A stretch of 64,000 nucleotides of DNA. Origin: Tubulanus polymorphus. Lineage: Eukaryota; Animalia; Nemertea. Location: the NCBI RefSeq assembly GCF_964204645.1, contig NC_134025.1:25834299-25898298 (forward strand), written 5' to 3'. The notes under the pieces were generated by a model that was not told where the DNA came from, did not search any database, and saw nothing but the letters and a program-made list of their open reading frames with translations. This document shows, one piece after another, positions 4,412 to 62,772 of this stretch. Numbering within the stretch: position 1 is the first letter of the stretch; every line of letters starts with the position of its first letter. A program made the position numbers and the translations under genes.

Positions 4412-6710
4412 CTAAAGTTTTACTGCTTGCGAAAATATCTTGATGGCGTAGAGTTTCTTTGAAAGAGTCTCGAACCCGACGATGTGAGTGATTCGGATCA
4501 GTTCATCTACTGATGCCAAGTGACCTTTTGATTTTTTCCAGTAATTCATTGCCTGGATCACCCGTTCTTTAAGATTCGCATTTCCTTTATATTTCTCCTC
4601 CAATTCACCGATTTTATCGTCTTCAAAGCGAAACTTTCTCATCAAATGGCGCAGATCGTGTTTATTGATAAACGTTGACATTTCTACGAACATCTTCTGT
4701 AGCAATAAATCTAAAACGTAAAAGAAACGGCATAAATGAAAGGACATAGACAAATTTGGGTTTCTAATACGTTTCTTCTTATATATATATGTTACCTTCC
4801 CGCTCTACATGCTTTCTAATGAACAGGCCAATCGGTTGCATGACGCCACTTACACACACGTCCATCGGTGGATTGCGAAGCGGGTTGTCCTGCAGTTGCA
4901 AATCTTTCAAACCTTTCATATTGTCAAAGTTCTCGGGTAAATCTCTTAGTTCGTTGGAGTACAGTTGCAGAACCTCTATTTTATCCATCGTGCAAATGCA
5001 TTCCGGAATCGAACGCAACAAATTATGATGGGCAACCAACGTAACCAAGTTCTTCACCTCTGATATGTTGTTCGGAAGATATTCGATACTGTTGTTTTGG
5101 ACATGTAAATGTTTTATGCTCGAAAGTCCAATTTCTTCGGGCAAGAATTGAACTTTTGAACCATTTTCTTGGTCGAAAATAAGCGTTTCCAAATTTGGTA
5201 TGAAACATACTTGAATCGGGAATTCTTCATAGTCATTGTGAGACAAATCTAGAGAAGTTAAACCGACCATCGATCTCACTTCATCCTGTACGTTCATCAA
5301 ATTATTACGCGACATGTCCAGCGTATTTAAAGACGAAAGTTCGCATACTTGGAACGGGAAACTTTCGAAGCAATTTTCATTCAGTCGCAGAATCTCCAAT
5401 GACACTAATCGTGAGAACTCCATCGGGATTCCTGACAGTTTGTTACCGTGTGCGTCCAGTACTTGAAGGTGTTTCAAACTAGTCACACACGTCGGGAATT
5501 CCTCGAATAGATTCCCGCTAATGTTCAATTCTTTCAGCTTCTTCAGTTCAGAAAATTCATTCGGTAGAACTAACAATTTGTTATTTTGAAGAAGGAGTAT
5601 TTCTAACTGATTTAATGAGCAGATAGCAATAGGGAAGTGCTCGATATTATTGTCATTCAAAATAAGCGTGGTCATTGTTTTTAGATTCTTGAGCTCAAGT
5701 GGTACCGAAGATAACATGTTTTTCCCTAAGTAAAGCATACTGATATCCGAACAATAAGCTAGCTCTTCTGGAATCTCATTTATTTCATTGCTACCCATGT
5801 AGATTTCTTGCAGATCAAATAATTCGGCAATGTTTTGAGGTATTTTTCTTATTTTATTGCCCTCCAAACCTAAAACTTGAAGTTTTGTGCACTGGCACAA
5901 TTCATTCGGTAGGTTTTCTAATAAATTGTTGTTGAGACCGAGAGTTACTAAATTTGAGAGCATTTTCACTTCAGGTTGTAGTTCTCTTATTTGATTGTTG
6001 GATATTCCAAGATCTTCCAAACTCTCCAACCAAAATATCTGAATCGGTATAAATTCGAACTCGTTGTCGTCCAGCTGTAATTGTACCAACTGTGTGAAAT
6101 TTTCGAACTCTTTCGGTAGATTAGTAATAGAATTCCCTCGCAAGAATAATCTTTTGAGACCTTGAATTTTGCAAATCTCTGGTAGTAGGAACTGCAGATG
6201 ATTATTATCTAAACCAAAGATTTCAATTCTTTGGAGCTTTGCCACCTCTTTCGGTAACTCTCTGATATCATTATCGTTCAGCAGAAGAACTTGCAGTTTC
6301 TCCAAGTCGCATAAAGTTTCCGGAAACTCCGATATATTGTTGTTGTCTGCAAATATGTGCTGTAAATTTTCAAGTCTCTTTATGTCGCGAGGAAAACTCG
6401 TTATTTTGTTCCCAGATATATCGAGAGTTCGGAGGAATTTCAATGCCGTACATCTTTTCGCATCGCACATAACTGGGTTCAATTCGGTGAGAAGATTGTT
6501 TGCTAAACTGAGAATCCCGAGTTCCTGCAGTTTCCCGATATCATCCGGAACTTCTTCGATGGAGTTATCGTTTAAATAAAGCGTGTCCAAATGAGGAAGA
6601 TCAAAAATGTCTTTCGGCATTGTCAATAGGTTGCATTCACCGAGATTCAAGCAATACATATTTCCGTCCATGCGGAATAGACGCGCGAAAATATCAACCG
6701 ATTCACCCAT
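4412..6710 (-). CDS. LRRD1: Leucine-rich repeat and death domain-containing protein (~737 aa); exons 6710-4796, 4710-4412
   Basis: One long exon of ~25 tandem 23-aa LRRs (LxxLxLxxNxLxxLP) ending in the NPLRNPPMDVC cap. It splices G|gtaac..tttag|AT to a death-domain-like exon (LMRKFRFEDDKIGELEEKY...RVIQAMNYWKK). Confidence 0.8.
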
Positions 6711-7589
6711 CTTCACGGCGTGTTCAATTAGTTGACTATGCGGTTAACGGTCACTAATGCTGAAATAATCAGAGCATATGATATGTGTCAGTCATAGGTG
6801 AAAGTTGTGAAAAATATCCAGGACCATAAATCGCCCCTAATCTACGCATGACGTGCCGTGGCAATAAAAGACAAAATGTAAAGATGATCCGGTTGAAATT
6901 AAGGTAGAGGCAATCTGTTTTCCATGCCTCGGAGGAACGGAAAGCCGTTCTTTCCATTGCAGAGACTATTCAATTGAAGATGGAATAATCTCTGTATAGA
7001 TTGAAAGAATTGAAATCTTTCCGTTGCGAGTAAGGAAGCAGATTCAATAGCCCTCTCGTCTAATATTTTGGGGTTATATTAATATATATTCAGGCATATA
7101 TTTGAAATGAATTAATGATCCATTCTCAAAATAATTCCTCAAATTAAATGAATGTAATAATTCAGAATCAATCAAAAATATGTATTTTTCTATACAATGT
7201 ATACATTTTACAAAATCACGTCTATGGAGGTTCTTATAACAATTTCTCTAGATCTGTTGTTTAGGAATAAGCTAAAACTACTTTTCAAAATTAACTGTCC
7301 AATTTTTTATGTGTATGCTTAGTTAGTTTTCTCAATTCATTTTCAATTCTAGATTGACCAATTAATTACTTATTTAATTTGAGATAATGTTTATATTGAG
7401 TTTACCTCGCGATAAATATGTGTCAAAGAGAATAATCCATATTATAGGAGACTAGTCAAAAATAATTCTAGCTACCGCCTCTGACACCCGCGAGTCCGGC
7501 ACTGTAAAACTAATGTGACTTGGGTAGCGTAGCGACACGACGCTCAGTACTGCTCAGTGCGCGCAAGGTGCCCGGTGTACCCAAGTAAC

Positions 7590-20430: not shown

Positions 20431-22745
20431 CCAATCTAGAAAACCATTTGTTTAGATAGTTTTAATTGAATGGCTTACACTCTGCTATACAATAACATAC
20501 ACCAACTAATTGGTCAGATTACTGGAAATTAGCGTGATATGTATGTTCTCAAGGTCAGATGACTAAAAACAGTCTAGATTTACTTTTAGAAATTTGATTC
20601 TTTACTAATGTGATTTATGTATAGATGTGATTATTGTTGGACACCAAGGTTGTAAGTGGACAAGTGTTCTTGATATTTCGATTTTCTTTCTAGTCATCTT
20701 GGTAATTGTTATTATGTAAGTATTAAGATAGCGTGCTATCTATATGCAGGATGAAATGGTTTTTGTTCAAGGGTGTTTAGACGTGTGCATTTCGATGCAT
20801 AATATTATACCATATACCTTACCAAGGGAAATGTTAACCCATACATCACAATTTTGATTGAATGATATTTCCTTTTATGTGCCAAATCAATGGAGTACAT
20901 TGGAATCACACTAAACCTATCATTCTGTAGGTTAAAAACCTTTTGCTTTGATAATTCTATGAAGACAGTCATGAGACATACTCAAATTTCAAATTCCAGG
21001 ATGAAAAATGTAGATTCCGTCCTAAGTGAAATATTAACTAAATCTCCTCTTTGACATTAGTTGAGCAGTAATCAAATGCTGATTAGATACTTAAATGCTG
21101 GACTAAGTGGTCTATATGAAACAAAGTGAGCTGCCACAGATTTATCAGAATTATGTATATAATGAGGTGTTGAAAGAATTAATGAATGAATCTGTGCATA
21201 CCATGTGATGTATTTATTGTTGAATATGTGCTTTTTCATCTTATCTGTGCTACTGCCATTTCATAGAAGTATAACAGTACCTCTATTAACTCTTTATGTA
21301 AAACATTTTTCCGAGGGCTCAATGACTTGCCATTTGTCTCGGCGATTCGAATTGATAGATGCCAGTTTGTGTGGGACATTATGGTGGAATGTAATACATG
21401 TACTGGTTTATACATTGATCTTATATATCAACATATCTCGATGTAATCATTGTGTAACTATTGTAACGTGATACGATTCTCCATGAAAATGTAGCAGATA
21501 TCTTTTCCTCATTCTCCCCACATGTACTATGATAGTATTGTTGAATTATAGAACTGCTTTCAATTATTCATCTATAGTTCAATGCCTTATTCGCTGGTGA
21601 AGTCTGACCAGTTAGATGATTTTTAGAACTCCATTCAACTGTTGCTTTGTCAATTAGCATTTGTAAAAATAGTGAAGTAATACACATGATTAAAACACAT
21701 TTAACCGATTCTTCTATGAGCTTATGTACAGATATGTATAATTTTAATGAATGCTAGAGATAACAAATAAATTAAGTATAAAATAATTTGATGTTTGTTT
21801 TTCTTGTGGTTGTATAGTCTTAATTGCGATAGATGGCGAACTAGTCGATCGGTAAACTGCTCGAAAGTTTACGACTTTCCACTTGGAATTTTATCCATGT
21901 TTATTATTACGTTTTGGTAAATGACTAAGAAATTCCATCAATATGATTTAATCTCGCTTTCGAGTAAATATGATTTTCAACAAGTGAAATAAACAATATT
22001 GAAAGATGATGCGTAGTTGATGGAACAGCCTTGCAGTGCACCGAACTGACCAATCAGAATCGCGTTTACAGATATGACGACGTGTAGATAGCAGCGACCA
22101 TTGCATCGTGAATTTCAGTGGAACATCTGCCTTTTGAGACCAATCTAACCACGGTGGCAGCCGCTAAGGCTGAATAGTGCTCGTGGATATAATCTGTAAG
22201 TTACGGGGCCGATATTTCTGTAGTTCTTATCTATAAAATCCCGCTGTATTCATGTTTAGGAAGTGAATCGAAAGTGAAAAATGATTAAAAATTTACTTCC
22301 GGGTTTGGTTGGGTCTGGGCTGGGGGGCAGCGTGTGTCATCATTGTGGTATAGCAGCACTTATACAATGTCTGTATAAGTAGCGGTTAGCTTCAAAGAGT
22401 GCGGTTACCATTCGACCACCCTTCACTCTCCCTGACCCTGAATTTGTCAATAGACGAAGTCAAGTACATGTTGTGTGCACAGACAGTGGGTTAGACTGGG
22501 ACGGGTACTTAAGACTTAATAGTTTAGCCTCATTTTAAAATGAGATGTTTAGATTGGTCCCATCTTTCTATTATGAATTACATCGTTAATTGAAACTAAT
22601 CATTTCAACGATAATCTTGCTTCATTTGAATAATAAAGGTGATCAATAAACTTACAAATCTAGGCCTATTTTAAAGATTTATATTTTTTCAATTGCAGGG
22701 ACCTTTGATTATTATAGGCCTACCAAGAATCAATAATACACTAAA

Positions 22746-25700
22746 ATGGATACCCAAAGTTTAGCGATAGGTGGAGCAGTGTTTGTCATTTCTGCTGTTG
22801 TCATTTACTTAATTTCTGTTTGTGGTATGCGGGAGCGTACTTATGAGGAAGTTATGGCGGAACAACGAAGGTGGCAAGAGGCTCAAATCAAAAAACCAAC
22901 GAAAACAGACAAGAAGGACAAGGTGAAAAAGAAAATCAAGAAGAAGGAAAAGGCTGCGACTAAGGACGAGAAAGGAGAGAACAAAGAGGAAAGTGAAGAG
23001 AAAGAAGAAAAGGTGGAAAAGATCGAAGAAGCACCAGTTCTTGCTAAAGAAGAAAAGATGCTCGAAATCGAACCTGATCCAGAAATTATCGATTCCGAAG
23101 CTCCCCCGAAACAACCGAAGGGAAAGAAATCTAAGAAAACCAAATCCATCTTACATAACCGCTCGGAGCGTTCGCCGAGTACAGATGCTGTTGATGTTCC
23201 GGAAACCTTTCACCCGAAACAGATGCCGAAGGACGAGCTGGAAATCAAATACAGTCACGTATCGACCAGTGAAAGTGATTCCTCTCCAGCGATCCGTCAT
23301 AGAAAAGGCAAGAAAGGCAAGGATAAATCTGGTTCATCTAACAACAGCCAGGAGGTCAGACATGAGACAAAGGCCGAGATATTGGCCGAGGCTGAGGTTG
23401 AAGAAGTAATTCATGTTACTGAATCTACTTATGCGACTGCCGAGGCCCCTCCTCAAATGGAAGCACCAGTCAAAGAAAAAAGAAAAAACAAGAAAAATGA
23501 AGGTAGGAGATGATTTTTTCTCACTATTTAGCCTATTTGATTCAAAACACAGTTAAATTTTGGGACGACCAGTTCAAAATCTAAGCTTTATGATAAAGGG
23601 TGAAAATAGCAATTTTTTTCTGATCTCCATAGCTTGTGTAGTACTTATACAAGGCCCTCGATGAAAGAAAACAAGTTTTGACATTCTAGACCACCAATTA
23701 ATGATATCAATTCCTTTCTATTGAAAATTTGACACAATGCTCTTCCGTCTATCAATCACTTAGATCATAGTCAGTCGCTGGTCGGCCCATTTCAAGTTAT
23801 ACGACAAGATAGCGAGTTCATAGTTATTGATCATATGTCAGTAATAAATTGAATTGTATCTTTTGTCTGTCTTCGTAATCATTACTTTAAGTTATTTCTT
23901 TGTGATAAAGTTCTTGATACATCGAAAAATATATTGATATGGGTATAAGGCCTTAAGTTCAACACGTAGACTTTTTGCTTGTTGTTATATTCAGACAATT
24001 ATTGGGTGAATGTATATTTTCTTGATCTTTTAATGACTTGCACATGATCCATAGATATGTGTGGGGGCTCTATTCATTTGTTTTAGTTTGATATAGCCTA
24101 TAGGCTTAGTCTGTATGTATGTGTGAGAGCTATTCAACAGCTGGTTGGAGTCATTGACAAAAAAAGAATATATATAATAATCAATAGCCTCTGAGCGTCA
24201 TCATATGGTGTTGGTGATACCACACTCGTTCTGAGGATCAATGCCTCGAATCTAGATATAAAACACTGTCCACGGATATTTCACCTAACAGATGCTTATT
24301 TCATTTAGTCACTTCTATAAGATGTGTTTCATTCGGCCCTTCTCATTCATCTGAACTGGTGAAATATGAAATTATGCTATGGTCTGAATATTATAATATT
24401 TTACCCTTTAATGACCCTTTAATTTGCTATCACTGAGTGAAGAAAATGATTCATGGAACAACATATTTTGCGGGAAGAAATGTTTATAAAAATCCCATAT
24501 AGCGGGTATAGATGTCAAATATTTCATTTCATTATACATTTTCGTCATCAGATTATCATATCGAATGATTCCAGGTTTGAACGTTGAAGAAGCAACCGAT
24601 ACAAATGATCTTTTGAACATCATTAAAAATGCTCCTCTTACTGAAATGGAAGTACAGACTCTGATTGACATTCTTTTGGCTAAAGGAGGACGTGCAGAAT
24701 GGAATAAGGTGAGCTTGCCCACATTTTCATTCGCACATATAGAATTTATTAGCAGTGGAATCAGTAACACTTCCATATCTCTTACGTGTTGCTAAATACC
24801 CAGTAGATCATACTTTTTGTCTTTTTCACAGAAATCCCAGAAGACTGATCCAGTTTACATCTTGAAAAAACAATTGGAAGACAAAGAAAAGTCACTTCAG
24901 GAAGGTATATAACCGGCGGCTTGTTTGATGTCTGTGTTTGATAGGTATCATGTTTCAAATTTGGAAAATTGTTTTTCAGAGCAACAGTTGGCCATGTCGG
25001 CAAATTCTCGTATCAAGGAGCTGCGCCAAGAGCTATCCCAAGAGAAATCTCGATACAGCCAAATAGAGAAATCGTCGCAGGAAAAAATCGCTGACCAACA
25101 GAAAGAGATCCAGGCTTTACATTCGCGCATGCAACAAACTCATGAACAGCATCGTTTGGAAATGTCACAGGTTCGGGGCAAAATGGACGGTCAGATGATG
25201 GGCGATGGACAGGCTCAGATCATTCAAAGACTGAGCGAGGAAAATAAGCAATTGAAAGAAGCCGCTGCCAAAGCACAGTTAGTTTTTGAAAATCTTAGCT
25301 CTCAATTATAGCCTAACCATTAAAAAAACGAACAAACTAATTTTCTCATCTCTTTTGCGATGATCTCCTATAGAATGAATGCTATGCCTGCAGTAGACGT
25401 GGCCAGTTTACAACAACAACTGAAAATTGTCAACACTGAATTGTCTAACAACGTGATGAAATTGAACACTAGCGAAAACGCGAAAAGGTCAATGGAACAG
25501 AAACTGCACAGATATGAGGAACAGATTAGAAGCCTTGATAATACAAAGGTAAAACTAGTTCTAATTTCTACTTATGATGTCTTAAATCAAAATCCATATT
25601 GATGGGTGAGTATAAATTTGTATTTCTGATTCTGATTATAGAAAGATTCCGAATCTGTTTTGACCCGCAAACTGAATGAGGTAAGCGAAGAACTCCGAAA

Positions 25701-51113: not shown

Positions 51114-52149
51114 TTTTGTTTGGGCCCGGTTCCTACTCGGTTGCCGGTGCATACTTCGATTCGCTTGCGGCTAATTGTCTTTCATCGCAAATATCGTCCT
51201 TTAGAAAAAAACCTATTAAATTTGTATCACTTGCCGAAATAGGATGCCAACTTAAGAAAATTTTATCCTTCGATGTATTGCTTTGTAAATAGCAAATTAC
51301 GGGATTCGAAACTGAACATCACAAACTTTGCGCCAATCATCGCTCAGAACGGACTGACGCACCATTGGCGCGAAAATGCGAATGCAAAGTTCTCACCGAC
51401 TGGATTTATGTTTCATAGTGTATACTTAAAAATCTTTTTTAAATCAAAATTATAAAAAAGCGAATGCACAAGTTGAATCACTTACCATCATGCAGATTCC
51501 CGATTAGCGTGCTCTTGACCATTCTCTTTGTTGACGTCAGTTTTACAGTATCATTTCTTTTTACAGAGTATTTTCCCTATTACAACTCTTTGTTGACATC
51601 CATCAATTTTAAAGTATTATATCTTTTTACGAAGTGAAGTCTGTCTAAACATTGACTGGTTTCGTGAATCTAGATAGTACAGTTTTCCATGTGCGTGGGA
51701 AGTATCATCTTGGGCCGTACCAAACGCGTCGACTAATTATAGGCTGAGGAATTTGGAATTTAGAAAAAAAGGGAATGGGTTGGGTTTCAAAAAAGCGTAT
51801 ATCCCGTATATCGGAGGGACAAATAAAATTACGTACAGTCATAATTTTGATAATAAACGTAAATATGGATGGAATTTCCGGGAAAACGATATTTGGAGGT
51901 TGAGACCCATGAAGTTTCGAAGGTTCGGGGTATTTGGAGGTCGGTGAGTCTATCTGGTAGACCAGGTAGCGTGCGGGAACGAGTTACCGAACTGAGGATC
52001 GAATGCATCTCGGATTATCTGGAGACACTAGTAACTTGTAAAGGATCTTGTGGTCAGGGAGGTCGGGCTATTAGTAGATCGGCTATGTGGAGGATTGTGG
52101 TATCAGGGTATTGGAGGAGGGAGGATGGTGGTGATATTTGGTGGCAGAT

Positions 52150-52765
52150 TTGGGTACCAGTACTAGTAGTCCTACTGGTATTGCCATTAGGCAGTCATCG
52201 CAGTCTAAGACGGCATATATTCCTGACACTGCAAGGCTGTCCCGCCTTCCCAACTCTCAATGTGCACAAAATACGACGCGCATTAGTAGGAGGGAAGGAG
52301 TTTGGGCTTGGACTGAGGTTTATTACCGCAGTCCTATTGTTTTCCACTGTGCGGTGAGGATAACAGTACCCAGGGCCTCTCTTTAAGCCCCGGGTACGGC
52401 CTACCCATTGAATGGGCAAGTTCAAGGGTTTTTCAAGAAATTTATGCGTGAGCCTCAGCCCTCGCATCTTTGAAAAATCCTATATGAAAGCTTATCCCCC
52501 CACCAGAAATAAATGGGGGGAGAGGGGCAGTTCCCAGTGTTTCTCAAAGCTTGCAATGCTTTGATGACAAACCTGGGAACCGCCTCGTTCGCTTAAGTTC
52601 CCAGGGTTTTTATAATGATAAATGCATGAGCCACGGCCCGCATCTGAAAAACCCTGGGAACTTCTTGCCTCATTCAATGTGTAGGCTAAAATTGCAGTGT
52701 CAGAATTTTGCCGTCGATCTTGAGACAATCGAGCCGATTTGGTACTACCGGTAGGGTACCAGTTG
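52150..52765 (-). ncRNA. Putative structured RNA domain (nested multi-branch fold), family unrecognised; strand tentative
   Basis: Nested stems 52209-52234/52692-52715 and 52399-52420/52664-52686 enclose seven hairpins, including a perfect 17-bp stem 52595-52611/52647-52663. Confidence 0.6.
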
Positions 52766-53859
52766 ATAGATTCCCGTATAGAAGTATTAGTAAAGATGGG
52801 ATTGGGAGGGTATATAGAAAGAAAGTTCATTTCAAGAAATCGTTTGAAGATGGGAAGTTTGGGATTGATAAAGTGCTTGAGGTTAATGCGGGGATGGGGA
52901 GGGGCTGACTACAAACAGGAATCAACTGTCCGATATAGGTTTCTAAATGGAAACACACGCCTCCGTGCATTAGGAATGGCCAGATAGCTACCAGCAGTGG
53001 GTTTTATATGGATGATGATGTACGAATCCCGGATTTGGGATAAATAGATTGGGGTAATCTTGGACGGAAGAGGATTGTTGGGATCTAGAACGAAAACCAT
53101 GGATATGAAACAATAGATTGCAAGGCAAGGCTGACATACAACCAGACACTACGTAGCCTATGTTGATAAATGAACATCAGTGAGCCAAAGTTTCATTTCA
53201 GTTTGATTGGAAAGTTAGATAGGAGAATTTCTGACACAAGTTGATTATTTATTGTGATAGGTGGAAGATTGGGAAGTTTCAATGTGTATTATTTTGAATA
53301 CGGGAATTTTGTTGCAAGTTTAATTATGGCCGTCAAGCAGCCATTGGTAAAGTTTCAAAATGGCTCATGGATGATGACAAAAATGACTACCAGTTAGTTT
53401 TTACATGAACCTGATTAAGATTAGTCAAAAAGAAAAACAATCATTTAAAGATTGCGCAAGAAGCATTTGATAAAGCAGGAGCGGTGTGGCGGGTGTAAGA
53501 AAAAAAACCGGAAATTTTGGAAAGAGATGGGGCGTAATCTGATCAGGTATCAATGTACAAATAACGTGGCTGAAAAACATCCATTGGTTGCTTTTGAAAT
53601 TGCCACTATTCGTGTATGATGACAAGAAGGCTACCTGTAAGCTGTGATTTTAATTATTTGCAAATTATTTCGGAGAATGATTTGAAAGTGACCACGCGTT
53701 TGGCAGGCGATCTGTACAGATATGTAAATACATCAGGATAACTGCACCAAATTTACATAATTATTTGCAATATTTTACATTATTCGTGAAATCCACTGCA
53801 CCATAAATAATGCATGAGATCACCCGAAAATCTAAGTATTTGCGTTCATGCCCATGCTT

Positions 53860-54985
53860 GTGATCCATACTTAACCCTTGAATGAGTGTTCCCACTCTGT
53901 CTCGGAGAGCAACACAAAAACTGGCCATTAGATATAAGTATTGACTTTACCATCGATGTATGGATCACCTGATACTTTTCTACAAGTCGATCGTTTAGAT
54001 TTTCGAGGACACATACGTAAGTTTGTACGAAATTTCATTATTATCGGTTTAGACAGACCAGGGAGGTCTCTCGCACCTCCCAACATACATTGCGTACTGT
54101 ACATCATTTGTGATGATGGATGCCGAAACAAGTTAACAAACATTGGTCACGCTCCTGATAGAGTGTGATAGGGTACCCTAGTACTTTGATTACTTTCATG
54201 AACAACTTATTCCGAATACATGATCTTAAGCTTTGCGAACTTTGCAAAATTAGGAAAACATTTTGTTGCGTATCATTATTGAACTCGTGGATACGTGAGT
54301 TCGAGAAAATTTGAGACAGTTTCCTCCTGATACATGATCGTTGCGTCACATATAGCACTTTAGTTAGTTTTTCAAGGCGACGACTTTTTCCACTTCGGAA
54401 CATAGGAAAATGGTCTCCAAATGGTGGAGCATCATAATCCCTGAGTCATGTATGATACGCGAGACTATCGCGGGTAGATATGTAATAAACCGGCCCGTGG
54501 TTTGAAAAATTACCCCTTTTACATTACGTACTCACATATCATATAATACTTCTTTTCGTAGGATCTTTACATAATTATAGTTAGATCTCAATGTGACATC
54601 AAATATGTTTGTTCATTTGCATGAAATATCGTGTGGCCATCTCAGTATTTCTGTCGTCTGAGATTTTACACAAATGTATAAACGTTACATAATTGTTTTC
54701 ATTTTGAACACCTCGTTCATAAGACATTAAAATAACGATACCCGGCTGATGGTACCAAGCTTTGCTCTAAGAAAAGGCAATCATCTAATGAATGAATGAA
54801 GATACTATTCTGTAATCATAGATGTTTCGTGCCTTATTGTAATTTTGAGACATTTGAGTCGGTGATCCAAACTTATGGGAAACGATTTTAGGACGGTTTC
54901 TCTCATTTAGACATAAGTAATACAACCTAAACTGGCCCTAGTTTTTGATGTAATATTTATCATGCACATGGAGTTTGGATCACGG
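53860..54985. ncRNA. Putative structured RNA region with two homologous GTGATCC stems and many short hairpins
   Basis: Perfect stems 53860-53870/53958-53968 and 54862-54873/54972-54983; hairpins at 54061-54081, 54147-54168 and 54281-54302. Confidence 0.4.
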
Positions 54986-55229
54986 AGTGGTTGTTGATAT
55001 AACACAAAAATATTAACAAAGATACTAACATAGGTAAAACTATAGCTTATAGGTAGAGATGCAGTGTAAAAAGCTATTTATGATATAAACACAAGTAAAA
55101 CTAGGTGATGCAGTGTAAAAGGGTGCATCAGAGAAATAGTTTAATTTTTGGAAATATTTGAATTTTAGAGATTTTTTTGTTTGAATTTTTACAGTTTTAA
55201 AATGTTTTTGGTATTTAAAAAAAATTACT

Positions 55230-56853
55230 TAAGTCCGCACTGTACACATGGGGTATGATATATAATGCAGAGCTGCCATTACTCTGCATATCATACGAAA
55301 CAATTAACTTTCAAATTCACAGTTAAAATAGTAGTACCAGTATCAAGTAGTTTCAATAGTTACAACAGATTAATAAAGATAACACAATGAGAAGAAGTTC
55401 GGCGTAATGAGATATGATATGGGGGTATACTGGTACCGGCAATGAATGACGATTAAAATCAGAAGATAAGTTGAATTTTAAAGAAGAAAATATATGTACA
55501 GTGCGTCTTAGTAGAAATACCACTTGTGGCTTGGCAAATTTTTGTACCTTACCCATCAATAACTGGTATCAAAATATCAAGAATCTAAGAAATAAGCTGT
55601 AAATCTGAAACGATCAGTAAAAAGTGTAATGAAATGTTCATTTCGGTTGGATGGGTAAGGACAGGTTGACGATCTTGCTGGCGATTTGGCGATGGAGTGA
55701 CGGTTATTGTTTGATTTTGAATTTTGAATTTTTCGCAGAATTGAAGCGAATCGAAATATAATTTTTCGGTGAATGGCTTCTGGGGCGAAAGATGAAGCCA
55801 AAATATTTGATGTTAGAAATAGGTTCAAGACGAACAGGGAAGGAATTGGTAGAATTTGTGAGAATTCTTGATTTTGCGCACAGCAGGAAATTCCACCCAC
55901 TTTCTAGAACCAGTCAGTTCAATTGCTCGTTCACTGGATGTTGATAGAAGGTTGAATCGTGACTGGGCAGTAAAGCGATCCATAGACCAAAATCTGATTT
56001 GGTTTGCAGATTTGGCTACGTCGGGAATTTCCATTGTGCTAAGGCCAAACACACATGACGATTTTTGCAAGCCGAGTCATGTGCCCCACTCAATCGCCAC
56101 CGAGCCTCCAGTCATACGATGTAGTGAGTAGATCAGGCGATTTTTCGAGCCCACTCACCGGAATGCTGCACTCCCGCGCAGATTACATAGTGCAATTCCC
56201 ACGGTGACCCCGCTCGACAATGTATCAGTTTCGGTGCCAATGATTGGCTACCACGAATCCATATTTGGCAGATCTAATTGATGCAGTGGACATACCAGAC
56301 GATATTGATCGAGCGATTGATTGGTCGTCCAAGTCCAAGATGTTCGAAATCAAACAGGCGATTTTTTAGTCACCCGATCAACATAGGTACAGGTGTGCCC
56401 AATTCATTGATGAGATTCGCCCAATTAAGACTCTCAAGATGATAGCCGTTCCTTGGGCCGAAATTTGCACATGAACGACCTGATAAACGGGAAATTGTAT
56501 TATGTAGTCAGTGCAGTAGTACAACCACCCGTGAATAAGTTTGAAAAGCCGTCTGATCTGCTCACTCCATCGTGCAAAGTAAGGACCGGTGCTGATTGAG
56601 TCGGACACATGAATCGTCAGGATAAGTCGTCAAGTGAACCCGGGAAGAATTCTGAAATATCCAAAAACATTACATCCTTCGCGTACCAGAAGCCATAGCA
56701 CATTGCACTGAACTTCGGCCGAAAAGATGTGAGATATTAAAGTTGAATCGGAAAGTATCAGTTCAGTGCTTTTTATAGACATATTATAGCTAGCTATAAT
56801 ATGACTATGTTAGACCTACATAAAGTAGGCCTGTGAACCGTCAATCCATCGCC
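55230..56853 (-). ncRNA. Long branched fold-back directly downstream of the orphan ORF (structured 3' UTR / hairpin RNA)
   Basis: Basal stem 55688-55705/56836-56853 (17/18); 55773-55783/56686-56696 (11 bp perfect); ~280-bp imperfect rod ~56060-56330/56357-56635; side branches; further stems 55236-55246/55495-55505 and 55547-55557/55650-55660. Confidence 0.65.
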
Positions 56854-56866
56854 GCGCGGAGCAGAT

Positions 56867-57565
56867 TCATGATAAAATATCTACGCTGTTGGAAGAGAAA
56901 CAACATCCGAACATCTTCTTGAAGAATTTCTTGATTTTCTTGAATCTGCTGGTTCTCCTCCTCGGCTCCTCAATTACAAATGCATTCACTGGAGTGATTT
57001 TGTATTCGGGTCCGTAGTCGTAGTCGTAGAATCGCTCAAATTCGTCATCATTTTCGGCGATCATTTCGGAGGCCGTGATCTCGAAAGCTAATTGTCTTCG
57101 CTCGAATTGTCGTCTTCTCATCATCGTGACGGTTGGGGTCAGAGGTCTGCAGATTCGGCGAACAACTGGCGCATACATGGCAATTTCGTCTGGCTGGCCG
57201 AGAGATTCCGTCGAAGAGGAGATATCAATGACGCTGCAAATATCGCTTATGTTGCTTCCGAAACTCTTCAAACTAGCAGCTTCTACCACGTAGGTTTTGT
57301 CAGAATGGAAGCTGTGCTCGTCATCTGCATTGTAGTCTTCATCGCCGACATCAGCGAAATCAGCGACATCAGCATCACCAGCATCGGAAGGAGTAACCGG
57401 GCTAGGCTCTGCCTCAATGCTTTTCCATACAACTTGGTCGGGCGAGAATACTCTACTTGTCGTCCATGTTTTCCCCTTGTCGTCGCGGATAACTCTAACC
57501 ACACCATCATCGCCAATATCATAGCCGATTTCGGCTTCTTTTACCAAAACGCGAGTAACAGGCAT
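56867..57565 (-). CDS. Orphan 232-aa protein (intronless CDS), acidic/low-complexity middle, basic amphipathic C-terminal helix with Cys-Cys
   Basis: 699-nt open frame, GC-richer than its flanks, with a TATA/Inr and a splice acceptor upstream. C-terminus RRRTSRFKKIKKFFKKMFGCCFSS. No family recognised. Confidence 0.65.
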   Translation of the reverse strand: MPVTRVLVKEAEIGYDIGDDGVVRVIRDDKGKTWTTSRVFSPDQVVWKSIEAEPSPVTPSDAGDADVADFADVGDEDYNADDEHSFHSDKTYVVEAASLKSFGSNISDICSVIDISSSTESLGQPDEIAMYAPVVRRICRPLTPTVTMMRRRQFERRQLAFEITASEMIAENDDEFERFYDYDYGPEYKITPVNAFVIEEPRRRTSRFKKIKKFFKKMFGCCFSSNSVDILS

Positions 57566-57697
57566 CTAGAAATATTCATGCGTATCATTTTTGAAGACGG
57601 TGAAGCGGAAAAAATATGCCCAGTTTTTCAATAGTTTGGTTGATAAAGACAGTATTCGAATTTCTTTCGAAATCGTCCACTCAATAGAAATAGACCT

Positions 57698-57730
57698 ACT
57701 GCATCCCCAACGCGATGTCAAATATTTATA
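57698..57730 (-). promoter_or_regulatory. TATA box plus initiator for the orphan gene
   Basis: TATAAATA on the minus strand (57730-57723), 30 nt upstream of an Inr-like gcAgt (A at 57700). Confidence 0.55.
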
Positions 57731-58744
57731 AACTGACACCCTAATATGGTAGGCTAGGCATTAAATGAAACAATGACGGGGCGAATTAATTTTCAACTGC
57801 CAAGAGAAAAAATATTTCGTAAGTTATCTTTAAAAAAAAAATGTGGGAAAACAATTCCTTCCGGCGACGGCATCCGTTCCTCTGTCATTAGTTTGATGCT
57901 CATCTCAAAAATCTTCCGTCTCAATGTTCAATAATCAATATTTAAGATGAAGATCACTGAAGATCTCATACCCAGTGAAAAATATAATATATTTTATGCT
58001 GACACCCCAATCAGGATGCCTAAATAATTGCAGCACCGACGTAAGGGGTACATATTCAATTCTGAAAACCGGATAGCTTAAACTCGAGACCCTTGAAATA
58101 ACTCATAATTAAATAGAAATAAGAGTTGGCAGGTTTATTATTCATTTCTAATTGTTTTTACTTAAAAATAATTAAGTTTACAAGTACATGTATCATCTAG
58201 TAGATATTATATGTCGTTTATGTTAATATTGATGAAAAAAAGCTAAGTAATAAATATCCCATTCAAAACAGTTCAATTCCACCGTATGTTATCTATCTCA
58301 TCAACTCAGGAATTGGATTCGTATCAAAAGACAAAATATGTATTTAGGAATTTTCGCCTAGACCTGCATCTGATGAGGGCCCCTAATCCATAAACACATT
58401 CTGAAAACACTTGAAAAAAGTTTCTCCAGCTTATAGTTACATAAATCAAAAGACAATTCGGAATGTATGATGTTTGTATCTTTGATGTTGAAAGTGGACT
58501 TGGCGTCCCCCGAATCACTTGCACGTATTAAAGCTTTGTTAAAAGTTATACACAATTTGGTTAGAAGACTGAGACAGGCATGATACTGCCACGAAAACAC
58601 CACTAAAATCGCTCACATAATCCACCACAAACACGTAACTAAGTTACAAAAAGCTTGCGAGATGATTTCTCGATGAAATTTTGAATCAATTTAAACACGA
58701 TTTACAACTTAAAAACTTAATGATCTTCATTTCCACATACTTAC

Positions 58745-58950
58745 ATTTGCTAATGCGTCTTGTTTTATTCGTATTAAGTACTATTTTCTTTAATTTTCTG
58801 CTATAAGTCACCTAACAACGGCACTTTAGTCGAGCTGCAACTTTGACTAACTTCACTGAAGCGAGTCTTTATAGTTACTATGGATGCTGAAACTACGCGC
58901 ATGCCCGCCCGTCGTCACGCTATGACGTCACTAGGGGCTCCAGCCGCGGA
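58745..58950 (-). promoter_or_regulatory. CpG-rich distal promoter and candidate non-coding first exon for the orphan gene
   Basis: CRE TGACGTCA at 58923-58930, NRF1-like gcgcatgccc at ~58897, GC box. An ATG-free stretch ends at the donor |gtaagt (58744); an acceptor tttctag| directly precedes ATG 57565. Confidence 0.45.
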
Positions 58951-59448
58951 GGCGAAATTTACCGATTGCATGTATGGCGTGTTGATACCCTGGCTAACGT
59001 TTTGATAATATAGGATAATTCTGGACTTGTCTGCATTTTGAAAGTATTCAAAATCACTGCGTCTAAACAAATAAAATGCCTTAAACATATATTTCGCTAA
59101 CAAATTTAAGACACGACTGAAAACCAGAAAATCATATTGCTTGGAATATGATTTCTTCACAATTCTTATTTATGATACATATTTAAGCATGAATATCCAT
59201 CGACCCGAATCGATGAATTAAAGTGGTACAGATACTCGGTTTTAGTTCACTTCGACTGGCATTTTTCTATCAAATTTTTCATTTATTTTGATTCCCGTTG
59301 ATATCACGCGCGTTATCAACGGGGATCGCTCAAAAGTTATACCTGTGAGCATCACATTTTCAACGTTTTTTGGGGGGAGGGCTCCAGAACACTGTTCAGT
59401 TCCAAATAAAAATCTAACCCTCCCGCCACTTTCCTCCTCACACTACGG

Positions 59449-59627
59449 TGCGGGCCTGATTTGAATGGAGTGTTGTATCATTCAAAACCCAATTCTGAGT
59501 TGAAACTGACTCTAAATGGATTCCGTGGTTTGACTCTTATTAAGAGTTATTTCCAATAGTTTCACTGTGCAGTCGAAATTGAATTCAGAACTGTGGAATA
59601 AGGCGCGATCGACAAATCAGGCCCGCA
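59449..59627. mobile_element. ~180 bp MITE-like element
   Basis: Perfect 15-bp terminal inverted repeat tgcgggcctgatttg (59449-59463) / caaatcaggcccgca (59613-59627). No clear TSD. Confidence 0.55.
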
Positions 59628-60536
59628 TCCCTGTCCTTTGTATTTTCATGATGGTGGACCTCTTACGACGTGTACGGTTAGTGATATTTTCGATACGAGT
59701 TTTTTTTTCACCAAAAATAGTCAGACACAATTTTATTAGTTACGAAACGTTTTACGCAGTTGGTCTGCCGACTTTAGAGCGTCTTCAATTGTCTTGCACT
59801 TCCCCTAGCGGGAAACTTTCTTCCTTTGTTGCAGAATAACGGCTTTAATTCTTCTTGTACGGTAACTACGTGTAAGCAAAAGTCCTCGATTTAGACAAAA
59901 CCGTCTCCTTATCCATCGACAATACATGAATCAACAACGGAAAATAAATTTCTTCTTTTCTGTTTATTTCATTCACTATGTACTTTCTGATAATCTTTTA
60001 CAAAACAAATTCACTCAATACAATATTTCGATTCATATTCACTTCCTAGACACGTTTTTCAAGATTTAATGAATGAATTCAAAAAAGTATTCCTAAATTC
60101 ATAGCACAATATACCCTGACTTTAAATACCCCAAGATTCAAGTCTGACACACACTGGTAAAATTCTTATTCAGCGCTTAAGTTTATTTGGACACTATTGT
60201 GCACTGTATGATATTCTTACTCTAGAACTGCATTTATTTTAGTCACAGCTGGCATCAATCATAATCCATAATAAACCAGGTGACATCAGGTAAAGGTGAC
60301 ATCATCTTAGATTCAGATCATAACATAGTAAAGACATGCTGTCATCACACCGTAAAAGCTTAACTAAATGTTCACAGAAAAAGTATGTAAACCTTGATCA
60401 CATTTATCTATTGATGAATAAAGTTAAAAGTACAGGCAGTATTACGCAATCATAACTGTTTCATTGTTCATCGTGTTAATTTTACTTTCAGATTTATCTG
60501 CTTGAGATCAAAAGTATGTAAACTAATCTCACGCGA

Positions 60537-62772
60537 TCAAAACAATTTAGCTCCGTATCCGAATGTTTGTCGAATGCGATCCCAGTAGAAGTTTTTCCAG
60601 CCGTCTTTCGTACGATCGAAATCGGTCGCCGGTATTCCTGATTGCGTGAGAGTTAATTGCGTTGATCCGTCACGGTCGTCTAGCGTGAGCGTCACCTCCG
60701 AGTAGTGCGCCGCTGGCCAATCTTTCAAACGCCATTTCATTTTGATTTTCTCGTTCAAAACCTGCAATAGACAGATTTACGACAGTTCAATATCCAACTA
60801 GCATATGATTAGGCACCACCATTCGATACAGCAGTTATGACGAGCAGTTCTATCCAATGAGCTTTCATTTAGGTATCAGTTATATCATAATACATTTTCC
60901 AGCAAAAGTTGCACAGCGCACGTGAAGAACAGTTGCTTGAACTCGGACGCATTCAGTTTTCTACTTACAAGTTCAGTGAATTCACCAGATATTGTGTTTC
61001 CATAAAATGAAAATCGTCCACCTTTTTCGCACCTGAATTCACTGACAGCCTTTTGCGTAAATGCATTAACCATCTGAAATAATAAGTAACTAATTACATT
61101 CACAAACTCATATACATAAAAATATCGATTCAACCATTGTGTATTTAATCTACTTACCTCTTCTTCAGTAAGTGATCTATATAGTAGAGGAGGTGGACAT
61201 TGGAAGTCGACTTTTGTGGTTAATTTCTTGGTCGATATTTTAACGCCAGTAGTCGGTTTAGATTCAACTGCTTGATTGAGAATTTTCTTCGCAACATTTT
61301 CCTATGTAGCCGTAATATGAAATTGGTTTTTTAATTTACAGAAAATGCACATACATTAATTACATCATTGAACCAACATGCAGATTCATCTCACCTTTCC
61401 CTGAGCCTTTTCTTCTTTGCGTTCATTACTATTGGTTGTTTTATCTTTTGATGGAAGTATCATTCCCTTCGAAAATTCTATAAATAAAATACAATCTTTC
61501 ATCTAATTTTATCAGAAAATGAATGCACTGCTACCATACGATTACATATGTACAATATACACTAGGGCAGATTTAGGGGGTGGTATGAATAAATCTTAAC
61601 ACCAATGGTGTAATGCACAGTGGCCTTAAAATCTTCCTAGATGTGCCTCTGTATATACCGGTACACTGTGAGAGTAAATTGAAATTTTACCTTCTTTAAG
61701 CCCAGTAATATATTTAGCTAGTTGATTTCTGATAAGAAAAGATCCTTTTAGATGAACGATCTGTTTAAGAGTATACGCAGGATCACTGTTGTCTTTGGTC
61801 GAGACACTTATCTGTTAAATCAATTGAAAGAAGTTAGACCCAGTATTGTGAAATACACATGGCTTATGTGGCAATCATCAACCACTATCAAAAACTAATT
61901 GGCTTCTGGGGCTTTTGAATTAACAAGTCAATTCTTTCAGCATGATTTCAATTGTTTCTGTATCACTTACATCGATCTCCTCTGCAGAATTTTCTTCACT
62001 TAAATTTGGAATTTCAATGGTTCCATTAATCTTTTCATCACTATCAGTCAACATTCCTGCAAATAGAGAGTTATTTTTTTATCTTATGTATTCCACAGCA
62101 TTTAAATCCAATGTGTGACTGCTGAGTTTATGCGCAAATTACCTTCCCAATTTAGTTTTATATGCCATTCGTAGAAGAATATTAATTTAGCCTTTCTATT
62201 ATTTGCTACTGCCTCTCCATCGATGCTGACTACTTCATTAATCCTACATTTACCTGGAATTGAGTAAAAAAAGGCTTGCTGTTATCATCTAAGACAAAGT
62301 TAGGAAAAACATCCGATTTTTCATGGGATTTTTTATACCTTCATTTGTCTCTATAATAAGATCCATCAGCAGTGATTTGAGTTTATCTTTTGACCACCCT
62401 GAAGCATTTTTTTCAGTCCTGAAAAGTAACGACATCTTGTTTCTAGTCAATCACTAATATAAGATTGGACTCTACAATTAAAATCAATTGATTTAATTCA
62501 TGAATTAGTGAAATAACCCTTTTACTGATAATAGGGGTATCAATTTTGTTAATGCCATCATGAGGGTGGTTTGATATGTCAAGAAACTCAAACAGCAGGG
62601 CACAAGTTAAAAAGGTTAAGACTTTGAATGCATTACCACTACTCTACCACTACCAGGAGGGTATAATTACTTGACAACATACAATAACATACCAGTGCCA
62701 ATTGTTTACATTCGTTCCATCAGTCCGATCTTCTACAATCCAACGTGGATCTCCTTCACCCCACTTCGCCAT
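60537..62772 (-). CDS. AHSA1: Activator of HSP90 ATPase 1 (Aha1), multi-exon
   Basis: MAKWGEGDPRWIVEDRTDGTNVNNWHW|TEKNASGWSK, NNRKAKLIFFYEW, EIPNLSEEN, and a START-like C-domain ending FYWDRIRQTFGYGAKLF. Confidence 0.97.

Follow-up and report, generated by a model that had tools for sequence, protein, structure and literature searches.

A branched 1.2-kb fold-back beside the stop codon of a predicted orphan gene, likely of nemertean origin: an inverted duplication that appears to decay within a frame of short stems

Does a long imperfect fold-back that starts almost at a stop codon represent an RNA structure kept by selection, or an inverted duplication decaying inside a 3' untranslated region (UTR)? 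The question is raised by a 64,000-nt stretch of animal DNA with a GC content of about 35 % (the window; all positions count from its first letter), in which roughly 1.2 kb of self-complementary DNA lies 3' of the stop codon of an orphan open reading frame (ORF), behind a spacer of 13 nt. A preliminary description had read this fold as a likely substrate of Dicer, ADAR or Staufen and had argued against a simple decayed inverted duplication.

The window likely comes from the nemertean Tubulanus polymorphus, since the last exon of AHA1 (60540-60740, minus strand) is 100 % identical over 67 aa to the AHA1-like protein of this species. The fold-back and the orphan gene are flanked by AHA1 and by an exon near 51.1 kb, which we take to be the start of COG3 and which gives no Pfam match. 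Farther away, the window holds an LRR exon of 654 aa (4779-6743, minus strand) and a ribosome-receptor-like exon (22737-23513, plus strand) whose match to Rib_recp_KP_reg is weak. Judged by title or by the start of the abstract, none of the listed papers on T. polymorphus and its genome deals with this locus. The orphan gene and the predicted ends of its transcript comprise the following elements:

56867-57565, minus strand: orphan ORF of 232 aa, whose product is acidic, probably disordered, and carries a basic helix and then a Cys-Cys pair at its C-terminus
56869-56867, minus strand: TGA stop codon of the orphan ORF
57566-58744, minus strand: predicted 5'-UTR intron, read from the sequence, with a GTAAGT donor at 58744-58739 and an acceptor AG directly before the ATG
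58868-58930, minus strand: predicted promoter, with a CRE-like TGACGTCA at 58923-58930 and TATAAA at 58873-58868
55140-55145, minus strand: poly(A) signal of the ATTAAA/AATAAA type, the first one 3' of the stop codon; a GU-rich stretch follows, and the mRNA is predicted to end near 55120
55493-55500, minus strand: Pumilio-type motif TGTACATA, downstream of the fold; a single match that could be due to chance

The 232-aa ORF looks like a real gene by several sequence measures. Its frame exceeds every stop-free frame in 40 shuffled windows (their maximum being 175), is fully open in none of 2000 composition shuffles, and has a codon-use score above all 500 non-coding controls, with one other frame close behind (0.114 vs 0.079). 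The CRE and TATA motifs and the predicted intron presumably suggest a two-exon, inducible gene. The protein has no Pfam domain and found no homologue in homology searches; the best score against the Atlas was 0.79, with the leads below significance, and a single-sequence structure model reached a pLDDT of 37. Two metagenome loci (L001 and L002) were considered as relatives and set aside as a motif coincidence, being bacterial Asp-box-type repeat proteins matched over 43 residues. The C-terminus carries an RRRTS kinase-type site besides the basic helix and the Cys-Cys pair, an arrangement presumably suggestive of a palmitoylated membrane anchor. Two sequence variants fall in the ORF, one synonymous and one H87R. 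On either side of it, six-frame Pfam scans of 51200-56868 and 57566-60534 gave matches in none of the 12 frames.

How far the transcript extends determines whether the fold is part of it. No AATAAA or ATTAAA occurs on the minus strand from the stop codon up to the signal at 55145 and, as this is the first one after the stop, a 3' UTR of about 1.75 kb enclosing the whole fold is predicted. Weak variants of the poly(A) signal are present inside the fold at 56777 (TATAAA), 56501, 56408 and 56370, and the GC skew of 55100-56000 has the sign opposite to that of the minus-strand genes upstream; for these reasons the UTR may instead be shorter, or the transcript may come from the plus strand. By-eye candidates for donor- and acceptor-like sites on the plus strand (55656 and 55739) stay under the cut-off of a rough splice matrix, which also missed the orphan gene's own donor. 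On the same rough matrix, a strong donor-like site on the minus strand inside the central rod of the fold (CCG/GTGAGT at 56158) scores 7.4 and would, if used, imply a 3'-UTR intron. A search of the window with Rfam gave no match at gathering score and five at E 2-5, all of them chance.

The fold itself is made up of a long central rod and an outer scaffold of short helices (elements listed without strand):

55688-55705: basal stem, left arm
55769-55794: second stem, left arm, partner of 56673-56701
55878-56039: three-way side branch, with four variants that each break a Watson-Crick pair
56052-56330: rod, left arm, an inverted duplicate in which 185 of 274 aligned positions match
56356-56636: rod, right arm
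56673-56701: second stem, right arm
56705-56832: three local hairpins (56705-56769, 56775-56808 and 56812-56832)
56836-56853: basal stem, right arm, which begins 13 nt past the stop codon of the minus-strand ORF

This architecture agrees with what had been noticed at the outset. The basal stem forms Watson-Crick pairs at 17 of 18 positions, the very count given before, and adjoins the orphan stop; the inner stems, hairpins and side branch are all present by pairing counts and by folding. The core of the second stem (55773-55783 with 56686-56696) is paired at 11/11 positions and lengthens to 24/26 with a bulge. Of the local hairpins, the first is paired at 10/10 (56705-56714 with 56760-56769), the second contains a palindrome (56780-56803) paired at 12/12, or 16/17 over 56775-56808, and the third is paired at 7/8, to which the minus strand adds one G-U. 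Occurrences of the 18-bp basal motif with at most 3 mismatches number two in the window, compared to an expectation of 0.02, and the stem is retained in a folding context of 1.7 kb. By contrast, an outer helix extending over the stop codon (55670-55683 with 56855-56869) disappears in the wider context and was discarded. The folding of both strands that had been proposed earlier gave near-identical structures, the side branch included: 394 pairs exceed a probability of 0.5 on the plus strand and 384 on the minus strand, 298 of them common. Since the fold forms equally on both strands, it does not by itself point to the mRNA strand.

The rod of about 280 bp, likewise described beforehand, was recovered by self-BLAST of the window as the second-best non-self match (E 4e-38, 63 % identity) and by folding on both strands. 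Its arms of 279 and 281 nt are collinear with 7 small gaps. It folds far better than 40 dinucleotide shuffles (z -11.1 on the plus and -9.3 on the minus strand) and ranks second among 159 windows of 600 nt after correction for GC content.

An RNA helix under selection should keep G-U and lose A-C pairs on its own strand, a pattern described for multi-species alignments (PMC1892782). On the predicted mRNA strand the rod has 26 G-U against 24 A-C pairs (95 % CI 0.37-0.66), and hence lacks the G-U preference that would mark a strand-specific selected helix; the test had a power of 0.78 for a 70 % bias and 0.51 for a 65 % bias. The alignment of the arms (K2P 0.44) has 7 gaps and 185 matches, the mismatches being 50 transitions and 39 transversions. 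The statement that the arms differ mostly by transitions thus holds as a count (50 of 89 mismatches, 56 %, above one third), but it loses its weight as this share is no different from that of the SNPs (10/15; Fisher p 0.58). Seven of the 50 transitions lie in a CpG context. The order of the mismatches is equally unremarkable: the actual rod folds no better than 60 versions with column-shuffled arms (z +0.9/+1.5), and run lengths fit a random order, the longest run being 8 Watson-Crick pairs, or 15 with G-U. Over-dispersion of the mismatches, as expected if long perfect duplex were avoided, was not significant (P 0.07-0.10). A forward simulation of rod decay was tuned to the rod and is informative only for symmetry and run lengths. 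Since the other pairs of units show no such agreement, the direct likeness of 56046-56096 to 56522-56572 is probably an artefact of multiple testing.

Sequence variation offers a second view of the same question. Out of nine listed runs, of which X5-X9 contain almost none of the sampled words, reads of four (X1-X4), from at most three samples and with X1 possibly the source of the window, were aligned to 54600-58200. In all four runs the fold occurs once only at an identity of 85 % or above, a threshold below which copies would be missed; X1 yields one contig, 140 reads of X4 are all at least 95 % alike, and depth does not pile up. Runs X2 and X3 have patchy depth and loose ends at unrelated places that are reverse complements of one linker, presumably a Hi-C bridge although a literature search turned up no paper confirming its identity, and they appear to be proximity-ligation DNA. 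Eleven of the 17 variants in 54600-58200 fall inside the fold, whose 1166 nt thus hold 11 variants compared to 6 in the 2435 nt of flanks; this higher density (p 0.008) is confounded with depth. Nine of these 11 switch a position between Watson-Crick and non-Watson-Crick pairing; on the mRNA strand, 4 of them involve G-U, 3 A-C and 2 other mismatches, therefore again without strand preference. The density in 55878-56636 is several times that of the flanks. Because three variants restore a pair, raised mutation or template switching in hairpin-forming DNA could lie behind this excess. Taken together, the equality of G-U and A-C, the random order of mismatches and the accumulation of variants make the rod likely to be an old single-copy inverted duplication that decays without strand preference. 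The mixture of G-U and A-C pairs, which had been put forward as a mark of a selected Dicer, ADAR or Staufen substrate, is the same on either strand and does not support that idea.

The scaffold behaves differently. With the rod removed, the fold region still has z values of -6.2 (plus) and -9.1 (minus) relative to 40 dinucleotide shuffles. Five perfect stems of at least 10 bp occur in the fold, a number reached by none of 300 shuffles and by 2 of 105 background windows, in a palindrome-rich window where 43 of the 105 hold at least two perfect 10-bp stems. The outer stems, at 17/18 and 24/26, surpass the best rod windows of the same size (16/18 and 22/26), and a post hoc comparison of terminal stems at 94 % with a rod at 68 % fits poorly with uniform ageing (p 0.009, 0.004). 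What lies between the outer stems shows no homology from one side of the axis to the other and is self-folding. Rod and side branch together carry 10 variants in 759 nt, whereas the scaffold has a single one in 438 nt, located in a linker (p 0.049); by run, X4 alone gives 8 vs 0 (p 0.014) and X1 gives p 0.17 against the rest of the stretch. This contrast was drawn post hoc from linked alleles at shallow depth in at most three samples, and the lower number of variants in the scaffold is only suggestive. Three features nevertheless support the outer stems as more than the decayed edge of the rod: their pairing exceeds that of every rod window, they fold beyond chance in its absence, and they start just past the stop. 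The short-helix frame around the rod is possibly under selection. The earlier objection to a simple decayed inverted duplication consequently stands for the outer stems, which are distinct and set at the stop codon, but not for the rod, which shows the pattern of decay.

What could such a composite do? The explanation that we favour, tentatively and a little short of an even chance, is a near-neutral rod inside a likely selected frame of short stems, the whole forming a structured 3' UTR that shortens the life of its mRNA. The rod would be an old inverted duplication, present in single copy and in nearly neutral drift, while the near-perfect short stems, from 13 nt past the stop, would likely be kept by selection. 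The mRNA would run through to the ATTAAA at 55145, so that the first 1.2 kb of its predicted 1.75-kb 3' UTR would form a long imperfect duplex. Considering the footprint of a terminating ribosome, pairing would begin just past it, and pairs any nearer would be unwound. The structured UTR would then act as a sequence-independent signal for decay of the UPF1/G3BP1 or Staufen type, a mechanism that comes from mammalian work, and such an effect would suit a gene with a CRE and TATA promoter. Editing of the rod by ADAR may occur as an incidental by-product. Structured 3' UTRs shorten half-lives via UPF1/G3BP1, and the sites bound by Staufen are duplexes formed within one molecule (PMC7407380). The fold resembles known long 3'-UTR duplexes (inverted-repeat dsRNA, Staufen sites, UTRs of structure-mediated decay) in its length, its imperfect pairing, its non-coding nature and its position directly 3' of a stop, as well as in an intramolecular stability beyond chance. 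It differs from them in that it does not consist of two copies of a detectable repeat family, has a branched frame of short near-perfect stems, and is part of an mRNA by prediction. Against the composite count, among other points, the lack of strand bias in the scaffold (9 G-U on the plus vs 8 on the minus strand) and the existence of a second branched fold at 52.3-52.8 kb, away from any stop.

That second fold (52340-52800) has z values of -8 (plus) and -10 (minus) and 11 G-U pairs on each strand. Its inverted repeats are nested (15/16 and 17/17), and its three hairpin units are related to one another. The plus-strand stretch around it (51.8-53.6 kb) is rich in G and gives no Pfam or Rfam match, and the fold has neither a target-site duplication nor an adjoining stop codon. 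Elsewhere, a near-perfect palindrome at 1557-1714 has a z of -11.8 and lies near short direct repeats of 7-8 nt; it is likely MITE-like. Upstream of the orphan promoter are found a 38-bp palindrome (59290-59327) and a 15-bp perfect inverted repeat that closes a small branched fold (59449-59627).

The best-surviving rival, unlikely but to be taken seriously, holds that the whole fold is functionless DNA debris, either an old inverted duplication plus template-switch palindromes or what is left of a non-autonomous transposon of the foldback type, inserted after the stop. Folding is indeed strand-symmetric throughout, variants sit at pair positions in 9 of 11 cases and are denser than in the flanks, the window contains further palindromic elements, and inverted duplicates are known to be frequent in the genomes of animals (PMC3176832, PMC8728187). 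Like foldback or MITE transposons, the fold has 18-bp ends resembling terminal inverted repeats (17/18) and internal inverted repeats. However, the only candidate target-site duplication is no longer than a 4-nt chance match, and the four runs hold no second copy at 85 % identity or above. Terminal stems at 94 % around a 68 % rod speak against uniform ageing, and the start of the 18-bp stem 13 nt from the stop would have to be accidental.

It is improbable that the rod itself is selected, as a hairpin RNA giving rise to endo-siRNAs or as a dedicated ADAR or Staufen substrate. Its length, its collinear arms and a dsRNAscan-type duplex score of 116 (threshold 75) would fit, and A-C mismatches would be tolerable if editing turned them into I-C pairs. 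The long inverted repeat and short terminal loop recall Drosophila hpRNA loci, one of which is reported to have arisen within a 3' UTR (PMC10317233), but here the arms are 68 % matched without strand bias, and neither the orphan ORF nor the rest of the window shows homology to them that would designate a target. In addition, there is no G-U excess, perfect runs are short, and variants break pairs freely. The pairing of the rod, about 75 %, can be compared with human duplexes, for which one study gives medians of 77 % and 17 bp for the unedited and 85 % and 31 bp for the edited class (PMC11838218); by this analogy the rod appears closer to the unedited class, though it is long and above the same score.

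About as improbable is a selected, lineage-specific RNA machine of 1.2 kb within an inducible orphan gene's 3' UTR. Invariant helices just outside the terminating ribosome would clamp and loop out a tolerant 280-bp rod, bringing the stop codon beside the poly(A) tail and the Pumilio site, a motif of the kind bound by Pumilio proteins. Structure on both strands would be kept because of convergent antisense RNA or because ADAR makes use of the A-C pairs. If true, a lophotrochozoan would offer a natural example of a UTR that exerts control by spatial rearrangement.

Less probable still is a use of the fold in both polarities, by a plus-strand lncRNA that would start in the promoter region of COG3 and run antisense to the mRNA of the orphan gene, or as a viroid-like relic. 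This would account for the G-U/A-C symmetry and the short helices (no Watson-Crick run above 8, P 0.07-0.10), and the plus strand has a G>C skew over much of 51.8-56 kb and an acceptor-like site at 55194. But neutral decay yields the same symmetry, and the ORF lies outside the rod and has an intron of the spliceosomal type. As for a viroid or retrozyme, no Rfam match in the window reaches gathering score, those near the fold are at chance level, and a hammerhead descriptor has no match in the fold. Finally, it is very unlikely that the basal stem stimulates stop-codon readthrough into a 17-residue C-terminal extension: a UGA followed by a short spacer and a stem enclosing a long loop is the architecture described for alphaviruses and for Drosophila kelch and headcase, yet the spacers described there are 7-12 nt and the loops about 50-270 nt long (PMC3159437), compared to a 13-nt spacer, a loop of 1130 nt, a UGA-A context and 16 codons until UAG, i.e., no long open frame, in the present case.

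The statistics of the rod are those of ordinary decay, and the value of the locus is modest. On present sequence evidence the composite remains the best reading, with the fold as a well-ordered example of a predicted long imperfect 3'-UTR duplex that would act as a generic structured UTR. Maps of long endogenous duplexes and of their handling by ADAR, Dicer, Staufen and UPF1 come mainly from human, fly and nematode. Set at a nemertean stop codon, a 1.2-kb fold that is single-copy and not made of repeats would allow one to test cleanly whether an inverted duplication, once captured, turns into a regulatory UTR, and the same fold would show which part selection keeps, the short frame or the long rod.
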